Shown: one piece after another, positions 7,550 through 61,094 of the stretch | Layout of the letters: every line of letters begins with the position of its first letter | Numbering within the stretch: position 1 is the first letter of the stretch | Assembly: GCA_049515915.1 (NCBI GenBank) | Contig: JBEKTP010000003.1 | Coordinates: forward strand, 735-64,734 | Direction: 5' to 3' | DNA: 64,000 nt | From: Patescibacteria group bacterium | Lineage (GTDB): Bacteria > Patescibacteriota > UBA1384 > UBA12157 > JAENIV01 | The notes under the pieces: generated by a model | The model's database searches: none | What the model saw: only the letters and a program-made list of their open reading frames with translations | Told to the model about the DNA's origin: nothing | Made by a program: the position numbers and the translations under genes

Positions 7550-9199
<1,650 letters not shown>

Positions 9200-9320
9200 G
9201 CAGGAGACTTACAAATCTCAAAATTTAGGTAAAAAACACTATAAAAGAAGACCCTTCTGAGCTTGCTTTGGGCGGCTTGCCCTGAGCGTAGTCGAAGGGT
9301 TTTCTTTTGATTAGAAAAAG

Positions 9321-9382
9321 GGCGGCCAGCTGCGTTGCAGCTGGCCGCCTGTAGTCCGTGCATCGCACGGACGGGGACCTCA
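9321..9382. repeat. double-hairpin element, family A copy 1
   Basis: GGCGGCCAGCTGC-gtt-GCAGCTGGCCGCC (13-bp stem), then GTCCGTGC-atc-GCACGGAC, then GGGGACCTCA. Near-identical copy at 11203-11269. On the minus strand it is followed by a T-run, so it looks like an intrinsic terminator. Confidence 0.7.
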
Positions 9383-9462
9383 AGTTCGTAGTTCAGCTCG
9401 ACCGAAATCTTGACATCATGGTTTGGCCGAGGCTGTACTGTGCACGGCGTGATACTACTACG

Positions 9463-10242
9463 TTATCGCTCTGGCCCTTGTAACGTATCGCTCCTGAAGT
9501 GCCTTCTCATCGGTGGAACGAACGGCGGCGAGTAGCTGACCGAGACAAAAACTCTTTTTTGCTCGGCCAACAGCGCCTTGATCGCTTGATCGATCACTTC
9601 CACGTTCTCCGTGAGGTTCTCTATGAGAATCTTGCGGATGGCACGTTCCAGATCCTCGCACATGGAATCAAAGCCTGTTGGAGAGAAATCGTAATCGGTG
9701 GCCTTGATGAAAAACGATGCCTCCGCTCTTCGGTCCATGGAGTCTTTCGCTTCGATTCCACTGATGGTTCTGGCGGTGGAATAGAAGATGTGACCCTTTA
9801 GTCGCCAGATCCAGCTGCCACAGAAAGGCCAGTGGGTCTTCTTACCGATCCAGATGCCGACGATCTCTTTGCCTTTCTGGGCCACCTCGCGGGCTTTGAA
9901 TAATTCATCGAGCTCGTCGATGAACTGTCTCTTGTATCCCAGGTAGGCGATATTCACGCACAGGGCACACACGATCATCGCCACAATCCACATAATCACT
10001 CGCGTTGTAATAATCGGATGGTTGTAGTGGGCGGCGAGGATAGCCGCGGCAAGCACGGCCAGTGAGCCCAAGATAGTCCAAGCGCCGATTGAACGATCGT
10101 ATTTCTTGGACCGCTCGTTGATATGCGGGTACTCACGGTACCACTCGATCACGTTACCCCACCGGAGTGGGAGAGAGCCTGTCGAGCCAAGAGTGACGAT
10201 CGTCAGAACTACCTCAATCACGTCTATCAGCTTTTCCGGCAT
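9463..10242 (-). CDS. hypothetical membrane protein (about 3 TM N-terminal, about 150-aa soluble C-terminal domain), GC-rich cassette
   Basis: Start set at MPEKLIDV with AAAAGGAG upstream. Own TTGACA-17-TATATAAT promoter at about 10317-10348 (minus strand). Confidence 0.6.
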   Translation of the reverse strand: MPEKLIDVIEVVLTIVTLGSTGSLPLRWGNVIEWYREYPHINERSKKYDRSIGAWTILGSLAVLAAAILAAHYNHPIITTRVIMWIVAMIVCALCVNIAYLGYKRQFIDELDELFKAREVAQKGKEIVGIWIGKKTHWPFCGSWIWRLKGHIFYSTARTISGIEAKDSMDRRAEASFFIKATDYDFSPTGFDSMCEDLERAIRKILIENLTENVEVIDQAIKALLAEQKRVFVSVSYSPPFVPPMRRHFRSDTLQGPER

Positions 10243-10316
10243 TTGCGGCTCCTTTTGCCAGCAATCGGTTGGATTGTGGGGCATTGGCCCCACCGATTGC
10301 CGAGGCATTCGATTGT

Positions 10317-10348
10317 ATTATATAAGAGTTCTCAAGTCAATTGTCAAC
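10317..10348 (-). promoter_or_regulatory. sigma70-like promoter (TTGACA-17-TATATAAT) for 9463-10242
   Basis: Read on the minus strand. Preceded by the GGCCCGCCACCCGGCGGGCC hairpin that terminates the upstream gene. Confidence 0.5.
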
Positions 10349-10408
10349 AAAGTTAATAAGATGAAGGCCCGCCGGGTGGCGGGCCGAGAAGTCATGATAG
10401 TCGATGAA

Positions 10409-11083
10409 CTATCGGTGGAGGATCTTCGGCGCGGACATAATCCGCTTGGCTGCTTCGCCCGCGCGGTCGCTGGGTTCACCGAGCTGTTCTTTCACTGCGT
10501 CGTTGTAGAGAGATTCTGTAATCGCGAGCAGAGCATAGTGCGCTTCCGCGAGCGACTCATCGCGCGAAAAGGTATCGTCTGCGCGGATTCTCGGGATGAT
10601 CAACTCAATCTCGCCACGGTTGAAGAAGAAGCCCCATACGGGAGTGATCCCGAAGCCCGCCAGTTCGATACTGGTTGGGTAGAATTCGCCAAGGTGCTTT
10701 TTCATCCCGGGGCACTTGGCGAAAGCTTCTTTACCCAGCTCGTGATAGATCGTCGCCATCGCCCAGACGGCTGCCAGGTCAGTGAACGTCCGTGTGTGAA
10801 ACTGGGCGCTCATTGTTCTTTCGCCCTCAACTTTGACAGCGCGGAGTTGACCTTGGCTATGTTCTCCGCGGATCAGCGCCCCGTGGTGATAGTAGTCAAA
10901 CAACAGGATTGTTCGGGGGCTTAAGGGGATACTCTTACCGCGCGGAGGGGTTCCATCGAAACGGGCCAGCTGGAGGCCGAATTCCGCTGATTCGAGTTGA
11001 CCGATATCGATGTTGTCATCACTGGGCGAGAAGTCGGGCAATCGAAACCGGTTAATCTCGACGACAAGAAGCGTATGTCTCAT
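10409..11083 (-). CDS. hypothetical 224-aa protein (GC-rich cassette)
   Basis: AAAGAGGAAG RBS. TTGACA-16-TATATT promoter (minus strand) at about 11140-11175. No recognisable domain. Confidence 0.5.
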   Translation of the reverse strand: MRHTLLVVEINRFRLPDFSPSDDNIDIGQLESAEFGLQLARFDGTPPRGKSIPLSPRTILLFDYYHHGALIRGEHSQGQLRAVKVEGERTMSAQFHTRTFTDLAAVWAMATIYHELGKEAFAKCPGMKKHLGEFYPTSIELAGFGITPVWGFFFNRGEIELIIPRIRADDTFSRDESLAEAHYALLAITESLYNDAVKEQLGEPSDRAGEAAKRIMSAPKILHR

Positions 11084-11202
11084 CTTCTTCCTCTTTCGGG
11101 CGAGGTGCCCACGGTGTATTCCGGTCAGAGCCGGTAGCTAAAATATATTTTAAAATGAGAATTTGTCAACAAAAAACAGATTTTTTCTCTTAGATAAGAG
11201 AA

Positions 11203-11269
11203 GACGGCCAGCTGCGTTGCAGCTGGCCGTCTGTAGTCCGTGCAAAACATCACACGGACGGGGACCTCA
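11203..11269. repeat. double-hairpin element, family A copy 2
   Basis: GACGGCCAGCTGC-gtt-GCAGCTGGCCGTC. Relative to copy 1 it has a G-C to A-T compensatory pair in the stem. Second hairpin GTCCGTG-loop10-CACGGAC, then GGGGACCTCA, whose last 3 nt are the stop codon of 11267-12100. Confidence 0.7.
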
Positions 11270-12100
11270 TTTGAAATGCAAACCCAACTCTGCATCCGTA
11301 ACCGGCGTGGCCCCATCAGCGGCCGCAGACTCCTCGCTAGTTTCGCCTTTCGGCGGGATGTTGAAGATCTCCGCGCCGAGCTTGATACTCTTGACTCTGG
11401 CGATGGCTCGAGGATCAAATCGAAAGCTGTTGACCAGGTTGCAGACCCTCTCTTCGGTGGGATTTTCGAGCTCGAGGAGAGCCTCGATGAACGCCTTGTA
11501 GGTTTGGTCGACGATTACATCGTAGCTTTCTGGCGGTATCGCCCAGAAATTGTCAAAGCTGGAGTCGGGGATGAAGCTCGTCACAGTAGAGGCAACGGCC
11601 CCGCCTTTCTCCGGTGCCAGAGCCAGCGGCTTCAGCGGAAGGGCTTTCTCGCGTTTGGTGCGCACGGCGCCGTAGAAGAACATATTGCCATCGATGTTGG
11701 CCGACTTGCCCGGTTCGAGGTAGATCCAGGTCTTTCCGAGGATCAACCAGCCTGGGCCATAAGCCCTTCCCCAATGTTCCTCGGGCTCGGGTGCTGTGAA
11801 CCAGCCGAACAGCCGACCCAAAAGGGGGAGGACCGTTGCCGTCAACGCGAAGACGATGGTGAGAGAGCGTGATTTCTCATGATTGGTGGGTAGTGTGAAT
11901 GTTGCTAACAAGCATACGACAGCAAGAGCTAGGACGATCACAGAGACACTAATGGCGGTGTTTGTGATCACACACAGTGCCATGTCGTTGTGGCCCGGCA
12001 CTTTTCCCCTTAGGGTGGTTCTCCCATGGATTTCGCGCATCAGATAGATGCTGACGACAGCGAGAACCAAGACAGTCAGACAAAAGGCGACTTCGGACAT
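11267..12100 (-). CDS. hypothetical membrane protein (4 TM N-terminal, soluble C-terminal domain), GC-rich cassette
   Basis: Start set at MSEVAFCL with AAAGGAGAG upstream. Stop codon embedded in the end of repeat A2. Confidence 0.6.
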   Translation of the reverse strand: MSEVAFCLTVLVLAVVSIYLMREIHGRTTLRGKVPGHNDMALCVITNTAISVSVIVLALAVVCLLATFTLPTNHEKSRSLTIVFALTATVLPLLGRLFGWFTAPEPEEHWGRAYGPGWLILGKTWIYLEPGKSANIDGNMFFYGAVRTKREKALPLKPLALAPEKGGAVASTVTSFIPDSSFDNFWAIPPESYDVIVDQTYKAFIEALLELENPTEERVCNLVNSFRFDPRAIARVKSIKLGAEIFNIPPKGETSEESAAADGATPVTDAELGLHFK

Positions 12101-12240
12101 CGCGGCTCTCCTTTGCTTGCCGGGGTTGTATGGGGCGGTATGGCCCGCCGGCAAGACAAGGAATGGGGCGAAACGCTCCGACGGAGCTTGAGCCGATTAT
12201 ATCTCGAGAACGTTTAAATGTAAATAGTATTTAATATCGT

Positions 12241-12489
12241 TTATACCAAAAGATGGAAGGCGGAAGGATTGAAGACGTAGTAAGTTCGATAATCGGTTTC
12301 TTTGGCTTTCAAAAAATGATGCTTGGCGAAATTGCGGCAATAATATTGCGTCGCGCCAATGGACCAGCCTAATTCTTTGGCCACTTCCGCTTGGTAAAAC
12401 TCTTTTTTTTCTTCGCAAAATCGCAAAAACTGGGCTTTCTTTTTGCCAAAGAGAAATTCAAATTGGCCGGTGTCTTTAATCTTGATCAT
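12241..12489 (-). CDS. small putative winged-helix DNA-binding protein
   Basis: 82 aa, AT-rich host-like codon use. Helix-turn-helix-like segment (QAEVAKELGWSIGATQYY). Weak call. Confidence 0.35.
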   Translation of the reverse strand: MIKIKDTGQFEFLFGKKKAQFLRFCEEKKEFYQAEVAKELGWSIGATQYYCRNFAKHHFLKAKETDYRTYYVFNPSAFHLLV

Positions 12490-12575
12490 TTTGCTCCTTG
12501 TAAGTTCGATTAAAAATTAATCTATGTCGTTAGATTTATAATATCGTGAGATCAAAAAAATAGCAAATCAATATT

Positions 12576-12902
12576 CTAAGCAAAATCGGGCAGGTGAATT
12601 TTATGCTTGTCGATTACATGGCCTTCATTGGCAAGCAATTTTTCTTTGGCCTTGATTCCCTTGGCATATTCGCCGACAAAATTATCGGAACGAATGACGC
12701 GATGGCAGGGAACCGGTTCGAATTCTTTCATTGGTAGCTGCCAATTTTTAGCACGATAATTACGATTCAAAATTGAACCGACGGCACGGTAGGCCTGAGG
12801 GCTTCCGGCTTTTTTAGCGACTTGAGAATAAGTCATGACTTTACCTTTAGGAATCTGCGCTACAATATTGAGAACTTTACGCGAAAAATCTTTTTTAAGC
12901 AT
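12576..12902 (-). CDS. ogt: methylated-DNA--protein-cysteine methyltransferase DNA-binding/active-site domain protein (MGMT/Ogt-like)
   Basis: PCHRVI active-site motif with downstream helix-turn-wing. The 108 aa correspond to the C-terminal catalytic domain only. Confidence 0.7.
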   Translation of the reverse strand: MLKKDFSRKVLNIVAQIPKGKVMTYSQVAKKAGSPQAYRAVGSILNRNYRAKNWQLPMKEFEPVPCHRVIRSDNFVGEYAKGIKAKEKLLANEGHVIDKHKIHLPDFA

Positions 12903-12960
12903 GGCACTTTCAATATAGGCTTCCGAAATAAGTTGTCAATTAAACGAAATCGACTCCGCC

Positions 12961-13398
12961 TCAGAAAGGCGGAGTCGTCGATAGACCCAGTCGGTTACTG
13001 GGGAAGAAATAAGTACACCGATTCAGCCGGAACGGCTGAGGGTGATCGATGCGGGTGTACCGGGGAACGCCGCTGAAATCGAGCGCCCCGATTTCCCCCG
13101 GACCTTTGTGGATGCCACCGCCCCAGTTGAGATCAGTGCTGGTAAACCAGCACCAGAAAGCTCCGATGGTGGCCATGATGGTTCCGGTAATCCAGCCGTC
13201 CGGCGTGCCTTGTCCCAGTATGGGAGAGATCAGAGCCACTAAGAAGCTGACCGAACAGCCTACCACGGCACAGATTTCATCCCGCCGGCTTGGTCGCGGC
13301 CTGATGGGAAGCATCAAGTAGCAGTAGGCAAGCAGCCACCGCCAGTACAAAGCGATGGCGGCCGCGATGATCGCAACCAGCCAGAGTAACCAGAGCAT
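12961..13398 (-). CDS. hypothetical polytopic membrane protein (GC-rich cassette)
   Basis: Start at MLWLLWLV with GAAAGGAGAGG upstream. Perfect TTGACT-17-TATAAT promoter (minus strand) at 13455-13483. GC hairpin CGACTCCGCC...GGCGGAGTCG overlaps the stop. Confidence 0.55.
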   Translation of the reverse strand: MLWLLWLVAIIAAAIALYWRWLLAYCYLMLPIRPRPSRRDEICAVVGCSVSFLVALISPILGQGTPDGWITGTIMATIGAFWCWFTSTDLNWGGGIHKGPGEIGALDFSGVPRYTRIDHPQPFRLNRCTYFFPSNRLGLSTTPPF

Positions 13399-13454
13399 CA
13401 GCGCCTCTCCTTTCTTGGTTCGACCTTTCACTTCAAGATCACGGCATAATCAAA

Positions 13455-13483
13455 ATTATACTTGGTAGAAGAGATCAAGTCAA
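13455..13483 (-). promoter_or_regulatory. sigma70 consensus-like promoter TTGACT-17-TATAAT driving 12961-13398
   Basis: Read on the minus strand. Lies in AT-rich DNA immediately outside the GC-rich CDS. Confidence 0.5.
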
Positions 13484-19207: not shown

Positions 19208-19330
19208 CTGGCTTCGCCAGTGTTGACATCAAGGCGGCGGTCTCATCGCCGCCTTTCTCTTATATTTATAAAAGGAAGGGCGGCAGGACTTCTGTCCTGC
19301 CGCCGTTATAATCTGGGCGAGAAACGCTGG

Positions 19331-20699: not shown

Positions 20700-20738
20700 C
20701 AGGCAGGGCGCGTATACGCGCCCTGCCTTCTCTGTTTT
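20700..20738 (+). terminator. intrinsic terminator
   Basis: CAGGCAGGGCGCGTATACGCGCCCTGCCT hairpin followed by TCTCTGTTTT. Confidence 0.5.
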
Positions 20739-27090: not shown

Positions 27091-27130
27091 GGCCCCGCCA
27101 CAAAAGTGGCGGGGCCTTCTCTATTTTATA
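27091..27130 (+). terminator. intrinsic terminator
   Basis: GGCCCCGCCACAAAAGTGGCGGGGCC hairpin followed by TTCTCTATTTT. Confidence 0.5.
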
Positions 27131-30593: not shown

Positions 30594-31670
30594 TTATTTT
30601 TCGAGGCGACGGCGCCGGCCGTGAAAGGCTTGGTGAACTTCGGCGAGATGTTGATCGGTGACGTGAGTATAAATTTGAGTGGTGGTAATTGAAGAATGAC
30701 CAAGAAGCTGCTGAACCGAGCGGATATCGGCGCCGTTTATGAGTAAATCTGTTGCAAAGCTATGACGGAGTGTGTGGGCCGTCACTTTTTTAGTTAGCCC
30801 TGCCATCTTAGCGTATTTTCGAATCATTCGTTGGACGGAACGGGGAGTGATGGATATTTCATCTTTGGTGATATTTATGTCGGGTTGGTTGGTGTGACCG
30901 TAAGAGATGAATAAGAATTTGTTTTTGTCATTGCGGCGAATGAGGTAATTATGGATGGCGTTTTTAGCTTCTTGGTCTAGAAAAACGACGCGAACTTTTT
31001 GCCCTTTGCCGACGACGGAGAATTCCGATTTGTCCAAATTAATATCTTCGATTTTGAGGTGGCAAAGTTCGGAAATCCGCAGGCCGGTCGAGAAAAATAA
31101 TTCTATTATGGCGCGGTCGCGGACGCCTTGAATAGTAGTAAGGTCGGGCATCGAAAGCAAATGATCGAGTTCGGTCTCATCCAAAAAAGAAATTTGCCGT
31201 TCACCGGTTTTAGCAAGCTCGATTTTGTCGGGCGAAAGTGTGGTGATATTGCGGCTGCCGAGGTACTTCAGGAAAGCGCGCAAGGCGATGAGGTAGTAGT
31301 TTTGGGTGGATTTGGAAAGAGTGTGACCGGGGAGGGTTGATGTTCTTAAAGATGCTGGTCGTGCCTGACCCAGCGAGTCGGGACTTTCTCCGCGCTCGGC
31401 TTGGCCTTGACCGTGCGCCTCGCCTATGCGAGTTACTTTGAGGTCACCGACCCCGCTTTTAGAGAGTTGTTGAGGGAGGCGGTTGAGCCAGAGGCGATAT
31501 TTATGGATCAAATTTTGATCAATTTTTTCCACCTCGGTAACACCATTTTCTTTAGCGAAACCGGCGAAACGTCGGAGATATCGATCATAATTTTGGGCTG
31601 AAAAGGGGGAGTTACCCTTCTCAATCTCCATATATTCTAAATAATCGATAATCAGCGAGTTGATGGTCAT
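30594..31670 (-). CDS. tyrosine site-specific recombinase (XerC/XerD-like) with a roughly 50-aa low-complexity insertion in the N-terminal domain
   Basis: C-terminal HTLRHSFATDLLINGADIRSVQQLLGHSSITTTQIYTHV (R..H..R..Y catalytic residues). GC-rich in-frame insertion at about 31320-31475. Confidence 0.85.
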   Translation of the reverse strand: MTINSLIIDYLEYMEIEKGNSPFSAQNYDRYLRRFAGFAKENGVTEVEKIDQNLIHKYRLWLNRLPQQLSKSGVGDLKVTRIGEAHGQGQAERGESPDSLGQARPASLRTSTLPGHTLSKSTQNYYLIALRAFLKYLGSRNITTLSPDKIELAKTGERQISFLDETELDHLLSMPDLTTIQGVRDRAIIELFFSTGLRISELCHLKIEDINLDKSEFSVVGKGQKVRVVFLDQEAKNAIHNYLIRRNDKNKFLFISYGHTNQPDINITKDEISITPRSVQRMIRKYAKMAGLTKKVTAHTLRHSFATDLLINGADIRSVQQLLGHSSITTTQIYTHVTDQHLAEVHQAFHGRRRRLEK

Positions 31671-33699: not shown

Positions 33700-34605
33700 T
33701 TAACCGATTTCCATTTCTTCAGGTTCACTGTTCTCGCCTTTATACTGAGCCGAAGAGGCTTCATCGTCAGGTTCAAGATGAGGTTTTTCGGTCTTATGTG
33801 CTTCTAAATCGGCGTCGGCATTACTGAACTCCACCTCGATTTTAGCGTTGTCGTTAAAATTTGGGCCACTTGATGGGTTTTTGGGCTGAGCGTTAATCGG
33901 AATTTGGCTGGAATTGGCTGGTGACTTTTCGCTTCCTGGCATAATTAATTGACCCGGAGTGGCTGGTTTTTCAGCGGCCGGTGGCGGTGGGGTCGGGGGA
34001 ACAAACGGGGTCGGCACTTTGGGTTCGGCTGGAGATGGAGTAAATGACGATAAAGTGGGCGGGGTTGGTGCTTTAGGTTCAGGAGCAGTTGGTTTGGGGA
34101 CAGACGACGGCGGCGTTGAGGGGCTTGGGGCGGAAGGTTTTGTTGGAGCGGGCGGCGGAGTGGGTTTGGTAAAATTTTGGTTAGTCGGCGTGGGTGTGTT
34201 TGGCTTGGGGACTGGCGGTGGCGAAACAAGTGGTTTATTCGGTAACAACGCGGGTTTTCCAGGCGGGGGCGGCACGCTTGGCTTAAATTTTAAACTGCCA
34301 AAGTTTTGGCTGGGCGGCGGGGGGGCGGATGGATTTTTAGGTGGCTCGGCATGGTGCTCGACCATTTTCGGCAGGCCGACCTGCTCGGGGTTTTTATCGA
34401 TTTCTTCTTTGATTTCGGCTTTTTTAATCAAACCGCCGGTGAGTTGCTCTAAATAACGGACATCAATTAAAGCGATGGCCGGTTTGCCGCCTTTAGTAAG
34501 AATGTACATCTTGTCGCGCTGAACTTCGTTGACGATGTTTGAAAAGTGATCGCGGGCGTAGGTTAGGGGAATAATGTTTTCCAGGGCAACTTTTAAGTCG
34601 TTCAT
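33700..34605 (-). CDS. Phd/YefM-like N-terminal domain fused to long proline-rich low-complexity region
   Basis: N-terminal 60 aa (VALENIIPLTYARDHFSNIVNEV...PAIALIDV) resemble the Phd/YefM antitoxin fold. Residues about 90-230 are PPPxPxP repeats. Confidence 0.45.
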   Translation of the reverse strand: MNDLKVALENIIPLTYARDHFSNIVNEVQRDKMYILTKGGKPAIALIDVRYLEQLTGGLIKKAEIKEEIDKNPEQVGLPKMVEHHAEPPKNPSAPPPPSQNFGSLKFKPSVPPPPGKPALLPNKPLVSPPPVPKPNTPTPTNQNFTKPTPPPAPTKPSAPSPSTPPSSVPKPTAPEPKAPTPPTLSSFTPSPAEPKVPTPFVPPTPPPPAAEKPATPGQLIMPGSEKSPANSSQIPINAQPKNPSSGPNFNDNAKIEVEFSNADADLEAHKTEKPHLEPDDEASSAQYKGENSEPEEMEIG

Positions 34606-34727: not shown

Positions 34728-35834
34728 TGCACAAGTTGAGATACATCGGTAACACTCCTAAAGTTATATTCGGAGGTGTTACCGATGAACAAACCATTGC
34801 CGGCTGAGCTGTTTTGTTACTTTAAGTCAAAACCAATAGTTCTTATCAATCGTCACGAGCGGTGGAAGAAGGTAGCGAAAGAGCAAAAGATCTCCCGCGA
34901 GGCCGCAAAGCGGCTCGAATGGATCATTTTCTATGAAACCAAAGGTGAGTTTAATGCCGTCTTTACTTGTCGCCATTTCGGCATTGCCAGAAAAACTTTC
35001 TACAAATACCTCAACCGTTTCAATCAGAACCCGATTTCACTTGAGGATCATTCCAAAAGACCGTTCAATGTTCGCCAGAAAATGATTACGCTTGAGGAAG
35101 AAACCAGAATCATTTCGCTAAGAAAACGCTATATTTTTTACGGCGCAGAAAAACTCCGAGCAGAGTACAATGAGCTTTATGGCAAGGATATTTCCAGCTG
35201 GAAAATCGGCTACACCATTGCTAAATTCCAGTTATATCCAAACCCAAAAAAGGTTGACAAACATCGGTTACAGATTAAGCGCAACAGGAGAAAACGAAAG
35301 ATCACCGAGCTTAAAAAGAGAAATGAAAACATCTTGGGCCACCTAATCCAGATCGATACGATCGTACTTCATCTGGATGGTCTCAAGCGTTATATTCTCA
35401 CCGCCATCGATACCTACGGCAAGCTGGCCTTTGCCCGGGTCTACCGTAATGCCAGCTCTTACTCGGCGGCTGATTTCTTAGAAAGATTAAACTTCCTTTT
35501 TGACGATCAAATCGTTAATATACAAACAGACAACGGTTCGGAGTTTCTAAAGCACTTTGAGAAAGCCTGCCAGAGTCTCAAAATGGAACATTTCTTCTCC
35601 AGAGCCAGAACTCCTCAAGACAACGCCTATGTCGAACGCTTCAACCAAACCTTACAAAAAGAATGGCTCTCTGAGGGACACTTCCACCCCGACCCCAGCG
35701 TTATGAATGCCAAGCTGACCGACTGGCTTATCCGCTACAACTTCCACCGCCGCCATGCCAGCTTAGGCAATATCTCACCCATCAATTATTGCATCAAAAA
35801 TAGACAACTGTTACCGATGTACTCAACTCGTACA
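34728..35834 (+). mobile_element. IS481-like insertion sequence (DDE rve transposase) with about 25-bp imperfect terminal inverted repeats and 5-bp GGGGA target-site duplication
   Basis: Left inverted repeat TGCACAAGTTGAGATACATCGGTAAC (34728-34753). Right inverted repeat GTTACCGATGTACTCAACTCGTACA (35810-35834), whose reverse complement is TGTACGAGTTGAG-TACATCGGTAAC. GGGGA directly flanks both ends (34723-34727 and 35835-35839). Confidence 0.7.
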
Positions 35835-35843
35835 GGGGATTGA
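34785..35843 (+). CDS. IS481-family transposase (HTH + rve integrase core)
   Basis: DDE core: QIDT..., TAIDTYGKLA..., DNGSEF..., YVERFNQTLQKEW. GGAGG RBS. Stop lies just past the right inverted repeat. Confidence 0.85.
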   Translation: MNKPLPAELFCYFKSKPIVLINRHERWKKVAKEQKISREAAKRLEWIIFYETKGEFNAVFTCRHFGIARKTFYKYLNRFNQNPISLEDHSKRPFNVRQKMITLEEETRIISLRKRYIFYGAEKLRAEYNELYGKDISSWKIGYTIAKFQLYPNPKKVDKHRLQIKRNRRKRKITELKKRNENILGHLIQIDTIVLHLDGLKRYILTAIDTYGKLAFARVYRNASSYSAADFLERLNFLFDDQIVNIQTDNGSEFLKHFEKACQSLKMEHFFSRARTPQDNAYVERFNQTLQKEWLSEGHFHPDPSVMNAKLTDWLIRYNFHRRHASLGNISPINYCIKNRQLLPMYSTRTGD

Positions 35844-58950: not shown

Positions 58951-59118
58951 TTTTCACCTCAAAATTTATTTGTCTTAGATAATCTTACCAAATTTGACGA
59001 AATTCTCAAGCGATTTTTGACCAAAGTGATTTTTTGGAGGGGGACGCCTTGATTATTCGTTAGTTTTATGGTAAAGTATGGTCAGAAATCGCCGTCATCA
59101 ACTCTGAGCGAGGTGAAG

Positions 59119-59541
59119 ATGATGTCTGATTCAAAGAAGACGTGGATTGGGGCGTTGATTTTTGTGACACTGATGGTATGCTGGTATTTCGTGACACGGC
59201 CCTCTGCGACAAGCCAGCCGCCGGGCGCAAGTGCAGTCGCGGCTATTCGGGCTATCGGTCTAGGCGGGCCGTCTTTCGTCCACACATGGACAGGGACGAA
59301 CGAGTTCGGGATGAGCGTGATTCTTATCATCAACGACGGCGGCATGTGTTCGTTCGGCGGTGATCCGCTCAAGTGGAGAGTCGAGGGCAGTACCCTCGTC
59401 ATCTACAAGGACGGGTCCAACTACACTCTCAGAGGGACTCTCTCGAGCGACGGGCACGGGTTGGAGCTGGCCATTCCGTGGAACAGCCCAATTACCGGAA
59501 AGCCGGAGGTACGAACCTACAACTTCGTCCGGCAAGGGTGA
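59119..59541 (+). CDS. hypothetical membrane-anchored 140-aa protein (GC-rich cassette)
   Basis: GAGGTGAAG RBS. N-terminal TM, beta-rich extracytoplasmic domain. Confidence 0.45.
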   Translation: MMSDSKKTWIGALIFVTLMVCWYFVTRPSATSQPPGASAVAAIRAIGLGGPSFVHTWTGTNEFGMSVILIINDGGMCSFGGDPLKWRVEGSTLVIYKDGSNYTLRGTLSSDGHGLELAIPWNSPITGKPEVRTYNFVRQG

Positions 59542-59627
59542 GAAGAATGCGGCGACCAAGGCGTTGTTGTCACCTTCCGCCGCGACGAAAATATCTTGAT
59601 CGGTACTGGAGGGGCGATGCAAGCCGG

Positions 59628-59687
59628 ACTCGGCGGGCTTTAGCCCGCCAGACGAGCTCTGGGGATTTCCCGGAGCTCGTTTTCGTT
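59628..59687 (+). repeat. double-hairpin terminator-like element, family B copy 1
   Basis: GGCGGGC-ttta-GCCCGCC, then ACGAGCTC..GGGGATTTCCC..GAGCTCGT, then TTTTCGTT. Near-identical copy at 61036-61094. Confidence 0.65.
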
Positions 59688-60106: not shown

Positions 60107-60263
60107 TTATCAAATTTTTAATTGAACTCACTAATTATTAAGGGTAATTTTACTAGTCGGCGTTTGTTTTGGCGTTGGGTCTTGATATTTAAGGAATTTT
60201 GAGGTAGAATATAGCCAGAATTACCGATTGTACCACACTCTGCTAAAGAAAGGCGAAAAGACG

Positions 60264-60998
60264 ATGAGGAAGAGAGCAGGGCTGTTGATGTTGCTGGCAG
60301 TGGTTGTTGGTCTGACGATGATACTGGCGGGCTGCGGCGGACACTCGTCGGCGGCGGCGCTGGTGGCCAAATCCGGTGTGACGGCCGAACCTCCGGAAGG
60401 CGCTCCGAGGACGCCATTCAGCCAGGTCAGGACATCAGCCGATGATTCGAATTCGGGGAATTTGGCGCAGTCAGCGAAGGTGGCCAAGATAGCATCTACT
60501 ACTGAAGCCGCGCAGGCTCTCGACCACTTCACGGTTTCGTTGTACGGACTTTCGAGTATGAACGGAGATTCCGAAATAACCGCGCCGCCGGGGTGTGTGA
60601 TCTTTCCATGGATTCATGTGAGAAACATGGGAACCGTGCCAATCACGGGGATCAAGATCGCGATCCGTTCTAATCCCGCCATCACGGTGGCTTATCCGGA
60701 TGATCCTTTCAACAAGAAGTTCATTAAGGCTTTGACGACGTCAGGGGTACCACTTCTCGATGGGCAAACCCGGAAGAATACCATTGGACCGTACAACTCG
60801 AAGTACTATCGGCAAGGTGCCGAAGCAATTTGGTCAGCGCTTGTTGCCGGGCCCAGTGGTGTTGAGGGCGTGATGCCAATTCAGCTGAGCAAACATCTGA
60901 TGCCGGGTACAGACGAACAGCTCCGGTTTACTCTGATCTATAAAGGAGCTGAGAAGGTCGTAGCGGTGGCGACGGTACACGTGATGCACCCAGAATAG
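60264..60998 (+). CDS. hypothetical lipoprotein (GC-rich cassette)
   Basis: Signal peptide with lipobox LAGC (MRKRAGLLMLLAVVVGLTMILAGCGG). Followed 38 nt later by repeat B2. Confidence 0.55.
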   Translation: MRKRAGLLMLLAVVVGLTMILAGCGGHSSAAALVAKSGVTAEPPEGAPRTPFSQVRTSADDSNSGNLAQSAKVAKIASTTEAAQALDHFTVSLYGLSSMNGDSEITAPPGCVIFPWIHVRNMGTVPITGIKIAIRSNPAITVAYPDDPFNKKFIKALTTSGVPLLDGQTRKNTIGPYNSKYYRQGAEAIWSALVAGPSGVEGVMPIQLSKHLMPGTDEQLRFTLIYKGAEKVVAVATVHVMHPE

Positions 60999-61035
60999 CG
61001 AACACTTCGTCGTGACGTGACACGTTGCGGATCGA

Positions 61036-61094
61036 ACTCGGCGGGCTTTAGCCCGCCAGACGAGCTCTGGGATTTCCCGGAGCTCGTTTTCGTT
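61036..61094 (+). repeat. double-hairpin terminator-like element, family B copy 2
   Basis: Same sequence as 59628-59687 apart from a single G deletion in the second loop. Confidence 0.65.

Follow-up and report, generated by a model that had tools for sequence, protein, structure and literature searches.

Why should a sequence of about 60 nucleotides (nt) that folds into two hairpins occur twice, almost unchanged, behind two GC-rich genes that are not detectably homologous? The question is raised by a stretch of 64,000 nt (64 kb) from a Patescibacteria group bacterium (assembly GCA_049515915.1, contig JBEKTP010000003.1, positions 735 to 64,734 of the forward strand), hereafter called the window. 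Copy 1 of the 60-nt element lies at positions 9321-9382 of the window and copy 2 at 11203-11269, and a preliminary description of the DNA, made by reading the sequence, had placed both correctly. On the basis of GroEL homologs, the organism groups with Candidatus Berkelbacteria and is referred to below as a Berkelbacteria-like lineage of the candidate phyla radiation (CPR). We argue that the element is probably the 3′ untranslated module of one type of cassette gene (gene C and its alleles), which was doubled through the displacement of one cassette by others. It would then be of a known kind, a tandem-hairpin terminator or 3′ untranslated region (UTR) module, and neither a mobile element nor a site-specific attachment (att) site.

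The 25-nt core of one hairpin (H1) and the pattern formed by the other hairpin (H2) plus its tail each occur twice in the window, versus 0 occurrences expected from 100 shuffles, and a repeat finder also returned the element as a two-copy family. Three substitutions and one 5-nt indel separate the copies across 62 alignable positions; they are 95% identical, H1 included. Whichever strand is folded, each copy forms two independent hairpins (z-scores of −5.8 to −6.7 relative to shuffled sequences). Because the three neighboring genes (A, B, and C) are all encoded on the minus strand, the element is to be read as the reverse complement of what was written in the preliminary description. Its layout on the sense strand is 5′-UGAGGUCCCC-H2-UACA-H1-U-rich-3′; in full, UGAGGUCCCC is followed by H2 (GUCCGUGC...GCACGGAC), UACA, H1 (GNCGGCCAGCUGC-AAC-GCAGCUGGCCGNC), and then CUUUUUCU in copy 1 or UCUCUUAUCU in copy 2. 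The parts of the two copies, with the basis of each assignment in parentheses, are as follows.

9373-9383, minus strand: 5′ leader of copy 1, (U)UGAGGUCCCC (kept in copy 2 and, with a 1-nt deletion, in the relative L035 described below)
9354-9372, minus strand: H2 of copy 1, GUCCGUGC-GAU-GCACGGAC, 8 bp (folding; stem identical to those of copy 2 and L035, loops different)
9321-9349, minus strand: H1 of copy 1, GGCGGCCAGCUGC-AAC-GCAGCUGGCCGCC, predicted terminator stem of 13 bp (perfect inverted repeat, predicted fold, terminator scan with tail CTTTTTCTAA)
9311-9320, minus strand: U-rich tract past H1 of copy 1, CUUUUUCUAA on the RNA (sequence, terminator scan)
11260-11269, minus strand: leader of copy 2, UGAGGUCCCC, whose UGA at 11267-11269 is the stop codon of gene C (sequence, open reading frames)
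11236-11259, minus strand: H2 of copy 2 with an enlarged loop, GUCCGUG-UGAUGUUUUG-CACGGAC (pattern match, folding)
11202-11232, minus strand: H1 of copy 2, AGACGGCCAGCUGC-AAC-GCAGCUGGCCGUCU, 14 bp, including the compensated A-U pair (inverted repeat, terminator scan, folding)
11190-11201, minus strand: U/C-rich tract past H1 of copy 2, UCUCUUAUCUAA, weaker than the U tract of copy 1 (sequence, terminator scan)
9244-9309, bidirectional: hairpin terminator of groEL (kept in L035, L036, L038, and L040), the fixed right-hand border of the hot spot described below

An intrinsic terminator with an extra upstream hairpin was among the candidates first proposed for the element, and the H1 features agree with it. 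Of the 13 bp of the stem in copy 1, 11 are GC pairs, as are 10 of the 14 bp in copy 2; the loop is 3 nt in both, and the stems run into CUUUUUCU, a good U tract, and UCUCUUAUCU, respectively; a consensus terminator scan flagged both hairpins as terminator-like on the minus strand. H1 with its U tract is thus a predicted Rho-independent terminator, and H2 is most likely an auxiliary or stabilizing 3′ hairpin. The positions relative to the genes were also as first described: TCA at 11267-11269 is the stop codon of the minus-strand gene 11267-12100, and copy 1 ends 80 nt from the stop codon of 9463-10242. Copy 2 extends from the stop codon of C to 33 nt short of the −35 element of B, and copy 1 lies past the stop codon of A, directly before the groEL terminator.

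In a scan of genome contigs, a 23-nt core of H1 recurred independently in unrelated bacteria as a hairpin followed by a T run, which indicates that the H1 core is a generic terminator sequence. Exact H1-type hairpins with T runs follow genes in several unrelated Firmicutes and Proteobacteria, and an unrelated repeat family of ~130 nt in the Gaiella sp. metagenome-assembled genome DAIOGR01 (loci L009, L011, L014, L018, and L019) contains the same GGCCAGCTGC-NNN-GCAGCTGGCC palindrome; the shared palindrome looks like convergent reuse of a generic hairpin. Within the window, the terminators of GC-rich ORFan cassettes (19231-19255, 20701-20728, 27091-27116, and 11202-11232), like those in L035 and L040, mostly consist of a GC hairpin plus TTCTCT(T/A)(A/T)T, and the terminators of housekeeping genes have plain T runs. 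The TTCTCT-type tail could have been inherited from a common ancestor of the cassettes or could be a terminator style peculiar to the lineage.

Tandem-hairpin ("U-shaped") Rho-independent terminators are catalogued in WebGeSTer DB (PMC3013805), and clusters of terminator hairpins are discussed in PMC8355165. The element resembles this class in having two hairpins less than 50 nt apart on the sense strand downstream of a stop codon, a GC-rich distal hairpin with a short loop and a U-rich trail, and a location between convergent genes beside a shared bidirectional terminator. It departs from the class in that one 60-nt module serves two unrelated genes, the proximal H2 is conserved across alleles whose coding regions are saturated with substitutions, and the U tract of copy 2 is broken by C, giving the UUCUCUU-type tail that recurs in the ORFan cassettes of this genome. 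A second two-copy, two-hairpin family occurs on the plus strand of the window at 59625-59687 and 61033-61094, behind the 3′ ends of a pair of unrelated GC-rich ORFan genes (59068-59541 and 60228-60998). It reads GGCGGGC-TTTA-GCCCGCC followed by ACGAGCTCTGGGGATTTCCCGGAGCTCGT and TTTCGTT, and its layout, a small hairpin followed by a terminator hairpin, is that of the main element.

Two of the three substitutions that separate the copies affect the partners of a single H1 base pair, which is G-C in copy 1 and A-T in copy 2, so that the fold is kept, as was originally noted. By our own estimate, a compensated pair would be expected in ~1 to 3% of random placements of three substitutions; as a single event, this is suggestive. 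Together with the retained fold, the pair suggests that selection acts to keep the H1 stem. The H2 stem is the same in both copies and the 5-nt indel falls in its loop, also in line with the preliminary description.

The genes that the element accompanies, and the signals associated with them, are listed below.

11267-12100, minus strand: gene C, 277 amino acids (aa), three predicted N-terminal helices, GC content 56%, no Pfam, PHROG, NCBIfam, or PADLOC family
10409-11083, minus strand: gene B, a 224-aa ORFan with a GC content of 56%, part of the putatively inserted segment (open reading frame, GC content)
9463-10242, minus strand: gene A, a strict 259-aa ORFan with predicted N-terminal helices and a GC content of 53%, for which the putative relic copy 1 would now act as terminator (open reading frame, searches)
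12196-12224, minus strand: promoter-like site of C, TTTACA-17-TATAAT (consensus scan)
11142-11169, minus strand: promoter-like site of B, TTGACA-16-TATATT, 33 nt downstream of copy 2 (consensus scan)
10312-10340, minus strand: promoter-like site of A, TTGACT-17-TACAAT (consensus scan)
10366-10385, minus strand: predicted terminator belonging to B itself, GGCCCGCC-ACCC-GGCGGGCC plus UUCAUCUUAU (terminator scan)

The GC content of A, B, and C (53 to 56%) compares with 45% for the whole window, and each gene is preceded by a promoter-like site matching the sigma-70 consensus at 10 or 11 of 12 positions. None of A, B, C, or the cassette genes D and E of related loci matched Pfam, PHROGs, NCBIfam, or PADLOC, and a profile of the C family found only six representatives among 1.84 billion proteins. 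Both genes bearing the element had been called membrane-protein genes; A and C do both encode hydrophobic N-terminal helices, yet they are not detectably homologous. The possibility that A is a diverged paralog of C, with the element as the UTR of tandem duplicates, was rejected: BLASTP gave E = 0.16 and hhalign a probability of 0.2%, A is not among the six representatives of the C-family profile, and the resemblance between the A and C 5′ UTRs is not significant relative to shuffled sequences. The AlphaFold models (mean predicted local distance difference test [pLDDT] 48 for C and 41 for A) are too poor for structural comparison. In one peat sample, C carries a nonsense single-nucleotide polymorphism, GAA to TAA, 25 codons before the normal stop (L042 3560-3742, equivalent to window ~11270-11450), so the C-terminal tail that runs into the element appears to be dispensable.

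The origin of copy 1 is indicated by a syntenic relative (loci L031-L035), in which the flanking genes are 90 to 95% identical in DNA and GroEL is ~100% identical in protein. Between an 82-aa open reading frame (a regulator gene) and groEL, L035 carries neither A nor B but a single gene, C′, which is the one close homolog of C and an allele of it (46% identical). Past the C′ stop codon, the sequence is TGA-tctacgac-TTGAG-TCCCC-GTCCGTGC-aacga-GCACGGAC-tcacaa-GGCGGGTTACC-ttatt-GGCGACCCGCC-TTCTCTCTATC, followed by the conserved groEL terminator. The H2 stem is the same and the leader is conserved (TTGAG-TCCCC); the UGA of copy 2 corresponds to an in-frame second stop codon in L035, three codons after the C′ stop. 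In the place of H1 stands another hairpin, with the same GGCGG/CCGCC base and an unrelated interior, that still folds and leads into a UUCUCUCU tail. In the MAFFT alignment of the three sequences (copy 1, copy 2, and L035), the L035 H1 is two columns out of register. This substitute hairpin and the compensated pair between the copies bear out the early suggestion of structure-preserving variation. Similarity was also said to stop sharply at the edges of the element; it does so at the upstream edge, but downstream the T-rich tails of copy 1, copy 2, and L035 are still weakly alike.

Immediately upstream of copy 1 on the sense strand lies a further feature.

9384-9401, minus strand: putative relic of the stop-codon context of a displaced C-type gene, TCGAGCTGAACTACGAAC, matching TCG AGC TGA, the last codons of C′ in L035

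The 19 nt upstream of copy 1 match the C′ stop context at 17 positions (TCGAGCTGAaCTACGAaCT), and blastn aligned L035 5390-5448 with window 9345-9401 at 85% identity over 62 nt (E = 8e-10). Both flanks of copy 1 are therefore ancestral, the C′ stop context upstream and the groEL terminator downstream. Copy 2 is flanked by the present stop codon of C upstream and the promoter of B downstream. That both ancestral flanks are retained at copy 1 argues that it is the relic 3′ UTR of a displaced C-type gene, and the presence of the L035 counterpart at the same position with matching flanks argues for vertical descent rather than insertion.

Insertion is what would be expected of a small nonautonomous mobile repeat, such as a repetitive extragenic palindromic (REP) sequence, a bacterial interspersed mosaic element (BIME), or a miniature inverted-repeat transposable element (MITE), landing in intergenic DNA after genes. 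REP elements are GC-rich palindromes in 3′ intergenic regions that can stabilize upstream mRNA or help termination, and they occur in hundreds of copies with a cognate REP-associated tyrosine transposase (RAYT). The near-identical palindromic units studied here are likewise GC-rich, extragenic, 3′ of genes, and located between convergent genes, as REP/BIME units are in Escherichia coli, and assemblies break at the copies as they do at repeats; the breaks are, however, accounted for by an exact repeat of 40 nt, which exceeds the assemblers' k-mers. A search for further copies, which the preliminary description had called for, found two in the window plus its flanks (~75 kb), both at gene 3′ ends, and, in ~500 kb of other retrieved loci, only the orthologous one in L035. 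There are no terminal inverted repeats across the unit, no target-site duplication at either copy, and no Y1/RAYT transposase among the annotated genes of the window, and these absences led to the rejection of the MITE and REP assignments. The element differs from REP/BIME families in its count of two copies in ~75 kb, in the lack of a RAYT among the annotated window genes, and in its vertical inheritance at a single locus, and we regard a mobile origin as highly improbable.

Wider searches gave little more. Three patterns returned 0 matches in viral contigs. The H1 core returned 17 loci in genome contigs, all of them unrelated generic terminator hairpins or the Gaiella repeat and none with H2, and the H2 pattern returned three chance matches in GC-rich metagenome contigs; the genome and metagenome collections did not return the window's own genome, so the absence of copies there says little. 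In Rfam, only two tRNAs in the whole window scored above the gathering threshold, and the best score at 9000-12600 was 21.8 bits versus a threshold of 100. The genome is common in peat metagenomes, and five independent assemblies of it are identical to one another across both copies. Contig counts were similar for A, B, and C, and no strain without B-A was seen.

The site itself is variable. Among GroEL-anchored loci, seven distinct contents were found between the 82-aa open reading frame, or ogt, and groEL.

L041: nothing
L036 and L038: one ORFan, D
L035: C′
L040: E plus B′, a homolog of B
L043: X43 plus others
L044: a 139-aa ORFan plus GPDH
Window: C, B, and A

Thus, zero to three unrelated cassettes occupy the site in the seven relatives. 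The cassettes are mostly GC-rich (52 to 57%, with 47% for X43 in L043, versus 45% for the window), most have their own upstream promoter-like site, and each ends in a GC hairpin with a T-rich tail. B′ is 46% identical to B (E = 8e-64) and has different neighbors. Among the hot-spot cassettes compared, H2 was found in those of the C type only, and the junctions of D, E, B′, and X43 have different hairpins without H2. No transposase or integrase was found inside the site, and no RAYT or reverse transcriptase in or near it among the annotated window genes. The copies had been expected to abut GC-rich cassettes: they do lie at cassette boundaries in a true gene-swapping hot spot, but for a reason other than that of a dedicated site.

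Several features would agree with a dedicated site. Direct repeats of ~60 nt bracket a 1.9-kb segment that has no counterpart in the close relative, at a true hot spot of zero to three cassettes, as if the double hairpin were a site-specific recombination site at cassette ends, attC-like or Xer/dif-like, at which a recombinase such as the Xer-like enzyme encoded at 30594-31670 would insert or excise B-A. H1 could also be viewed as two 11-bp inverted arms separated by a 7-nt spacer, as in a tyrosine-recombinase core, and the second two-hairpin family flanks ORFan genes at 59.6 and 61.0 kb. The flanks contradict this proposal, because attL and attR should keep one ancestral flank each, whereas copy 1 has both and copy 2 has new sequence on both sides. 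The different hairpins at the other junctions of the hot spot also speak against it, as does the enzyme, which is the only tyrosine recombinase in the window: it scored 134.8 bits versus the integron-integrase (TIGR02249) cutoff of 265, is best matched by the XerC/XerD models, and is encoded 19 kb away behind housekeeping genes. No attC cores (RYYYAAC/GTTRRRY) occur in the element, where CTGCAAC and GTTGCAG do not fit, and no copy was returned by the viral, genome, and metagenome scans, with the limit given above for the latter two.

The integron comparison was rejected in particular. As with attC, an imperfectly conserved structured repeat stands at the 3′ end of two cassettes, and its structure is kept more than its sequence. 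Unlike in integrons, no IntI is encoded in the window, there are no R″/R′ core sites, and the element, whose ends lack complementarity, forms independent hairpins rather than a single long bulged one; moreover, A, B, and C carry their own promoter-like sites. A cassette-end recombination site, one of the candidates of the preliminary description, is thus not supported by the evidence and very unlikely.

The divergence of C and C′ points to an exchange of alleles. The synonymous divergence (dS) between C and C′ is 1.50, with a ratio of nonsynonymous to synonymous divergence (dN/dS) of 0.29, versus a dS of 0.10 to 0.21 for groEL, groES, ogt, EFP, and S18 and 0.49 for the 82-aa open reading frame. 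Homology resumes on both sides of the coding region, in the 5′ UTR (89% over 108 nt) and in the region of the stop codon and H2 (85%). The excess dS indicates that the split between the alleles long predates that between the two genomes and that recombination, not divergence at the locus itself, brought them to where they now lie. Targets of diversity-generating retroelements (DGRs) carry a GC hairpin 3′ of the open reading frame, and CPR genomes are rich in DGRs; the hypervariability of C between close relatives and the GC hairpin just 3′ of it would suit a DGR target-site structure acting on the 3′ end of C. However, no RVT domain was found in the Pfam annotation of the window genes, nor any matching template repeat in the window, and the divergence extends over the whole protein, with saturated dS and no adenine-specific C-terminal patch. 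The DGR candidate was rejected and is effectively refuted.

We propose that the spot between the regulator gene and groEL is a recombination hot spot at which self-contained GC-rich ORFan cassettes, each comprising promoter, 5′ UTR, coding sequence, and terminator, would be exchanged between lineages. The coding part of a resident C-type gene would have been displaced by a segment consisting of a C allele with its own H2-H1, cassette B, and cassette A, leaving behind the last nine coding bases and H2-H1 of the resident as copy 1. Copy 1 would now terminate A, and copy 2 would terminate C. The recombination may have been anchored in the conserved upstream flank or the 5′ UTR and completed by an illegitimate join at ~9401/9402. 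This route, homology-facilitated illegitimate recombination (HFIR; defined in PMC3240628), is likely, as judged from one junction only.

HFIR has been proposed as the source of the orphaned 3′ remnants that sequential displacement leaves in Rhs and contact-dependent inhibition (CDI) loci and in the effector-immunity arrays of the Vibrio type VI secretion system (T6SS) (PMC5361080). The event proposed here shares with those arrays the anchoring of incoming DNA at a conserved upstream part, the displacement of the resident coding sequence, the downstream shift and retention of its 3′ end, and the repetition of the 3′ portion along the array. The differences are that only nine coding bases plus the 3′ UTR survive here, that the genes are ORFans without a toxin or immunity signature, and that the mechanism is drawn from one junction.

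Several points weigh against this account. The two copies are 95% alike, H1 included, whereas the H1 of L035 is completely different, so a closely related donor or later gene conversion has to be invoked for their near-identity. The conservation of H2 relative to L035 (85%) is no higher than that of neighboring intergenic DNA (~89%) and so gives no evidence of selection on H2. The covariation expected of a functional structure, which the preliminary description proposed to check, was found only in part, as it amounts to one compensated pair plus one orthologous hairpin, and the H2 stem never varies. Termination at H1 is predicted from the sequence only, and the copy 2 tract UCUCUUAUCU satisfies the rule of at least five T in 8 nt yet is interrupted. 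Available outgroups do not polarize the event, which could be an insertion in the window or a deletion or replacement in L035. Finally, the count of two copies covers ~75 kb, and others may exist elsewhere in the genome.

A further reading, compatible with a terminator role of H1, assigns H2, with or without H1, a regulatory function in the 3′ UTR of C-type genes, as a hairpin for protein binding or RNase processing or as the body of a 3′-UTR-derived small RNA. The H2 stem and the leader UGAGGUCCCC are the same in three C-type 3′ UTRs in which the loops and H1 vary. A GUCCC motif (GTCCC in the DNA) is found a few bases past the stop codon in C, C′, B′, and E (window 11260-11266; L035; L040) and in every case falls in or about the 5′ arm of a small hairpin; as a statistic, this recurrence is a rough estimate only. 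The 5′ UTR of C (window 12101-12196, minus strand; L035 6232-6330, minus strand) is 89% conserved with L035 despite the saturated coding region. In its predicted fold, UUCCUUG pairs with, and would sequester, the Shine-Dalgarno sequence CAAAGGAG, and the inner stem shows a compensated change (cuugCcgg/ccgGcaag versus cuugUcgg/ccgAcaag). This 5′ UTR, which had no Rfam match, is possibly a translational control element, and its conservation and structure make C-type genes look posttranscriptionally regulated. Against a regulatory H2 stand its conservation within the intergenic background, its invariant stem without covariation, and the lack of an Rfam match. We consider such a function unlikely, and retain for H2 the role of an auxiliary hairpin in a terminator module.

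Regulatory parts also recur outside the C type. The last ~45 nt of the 5′ UTR of B (11084-11130, minus strand) are ~87% identical to the 5′ UTR of X43 in L043 (7518-7565, minus strand), with the common motif GGAATA..CCGTGGG.A.CTCGCCCG.AAAGAGGAAGAAGATG. The X43 protein is unrelated to B and the L043 GroEL is only 85% identical to that of the window, which suggests regulatory modules common to unrelated coding sequences. Such UTR modules (H2-H1, the family at 59.6/61.0 kb, and the B-type 5′ UTR at 87% in L043) could conceivably be working parts of a CPR cassette-exchange system, in which conserved 5′ and 3′ UTR arms would delimit the precise swapping of unrelated GC-rich coding sequences, with the help of a protein recognizing H2 or H1. 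We think this quite unlikely; if true, it would be a promoter-carrying, integrase-independent counterpart of integron cassettes.

Other observations concern the wider surroundings. Further GC-rich islets (~50 to 58%) of genes without Pfam hits lie among housekeeping genes at 18.3-21.3 kb, 26-29 kb, and 59-63 kb, in surroundings of mostly 39 to 45% GC. A self-contained 527-bp cassette at 12957-13482, with a promoter, a GC-rich 156-aa membrane ORFan (12961-13431), and a terminator (12951-12977), has no counterpart in L035; it is bounded by the imperfect 7-nt direct repeat TCGACTC/TCAACTC, and an insertion in the window lineage and a microhomology-mediated deletion in L035 are equally possible. 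In relatives, a large serine recombinase and small phage-like genes adjoin ychF (L031 2892-4702; L036 17814-19412), and an IS1595 transposase gene lies between ssb and rpsR (L031 and L032); neither is present in the window. An IS481/IS3-type DDE transposase with rve domains (34776-35843, plus strand) adjoins a 301-aa protein with an N-terminal Phd/YefM antitoxin domain (33700-34605, minus strand).

The closest parallel to the hot spot as a whole is provided by the minimal mobile elements of Neisseria, described by Saunders and Snyder in 2002, which reportedly consist of a fixed, conserved gene pair with content that varies between strains. The present site likewise has fixed flanking genes, the 82-aa regulator gene and groEL, content that varies by strain, and no mobility gene; homologous recombination in the flanks is the likely route in the absence of a transposase or integrase. 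It differs in belonging to an uncultivated CPR lineage, in the near-consensus promoters and hairpin terminators of its GC-rich cassettes, and in 5′ and 3′ UTR modules that are common to unrelated coding sequences. Saunders and Snyder 2002 (pmid 12480877) is cited in PMC1538595.

The element itself is ordinary and of small direct importance, and its value is that of a marker of a displacement event at the hot spot. There, a Berkelbacteria-like CPR lineage appears to swap self-contained GC-rich ORFan cassettes between genomes that are otherwise 90 to 95% identical. In CPR bacteria, which are host-dependent and have tiny genomes, the gain and turnover of strain-specific membrane proteins are poorly known. 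The locus offers a testable example both of allele replacement (dS of 1.5 inside versus ~0.2 outside) and of regulatory modules that unrelated genes reuse.

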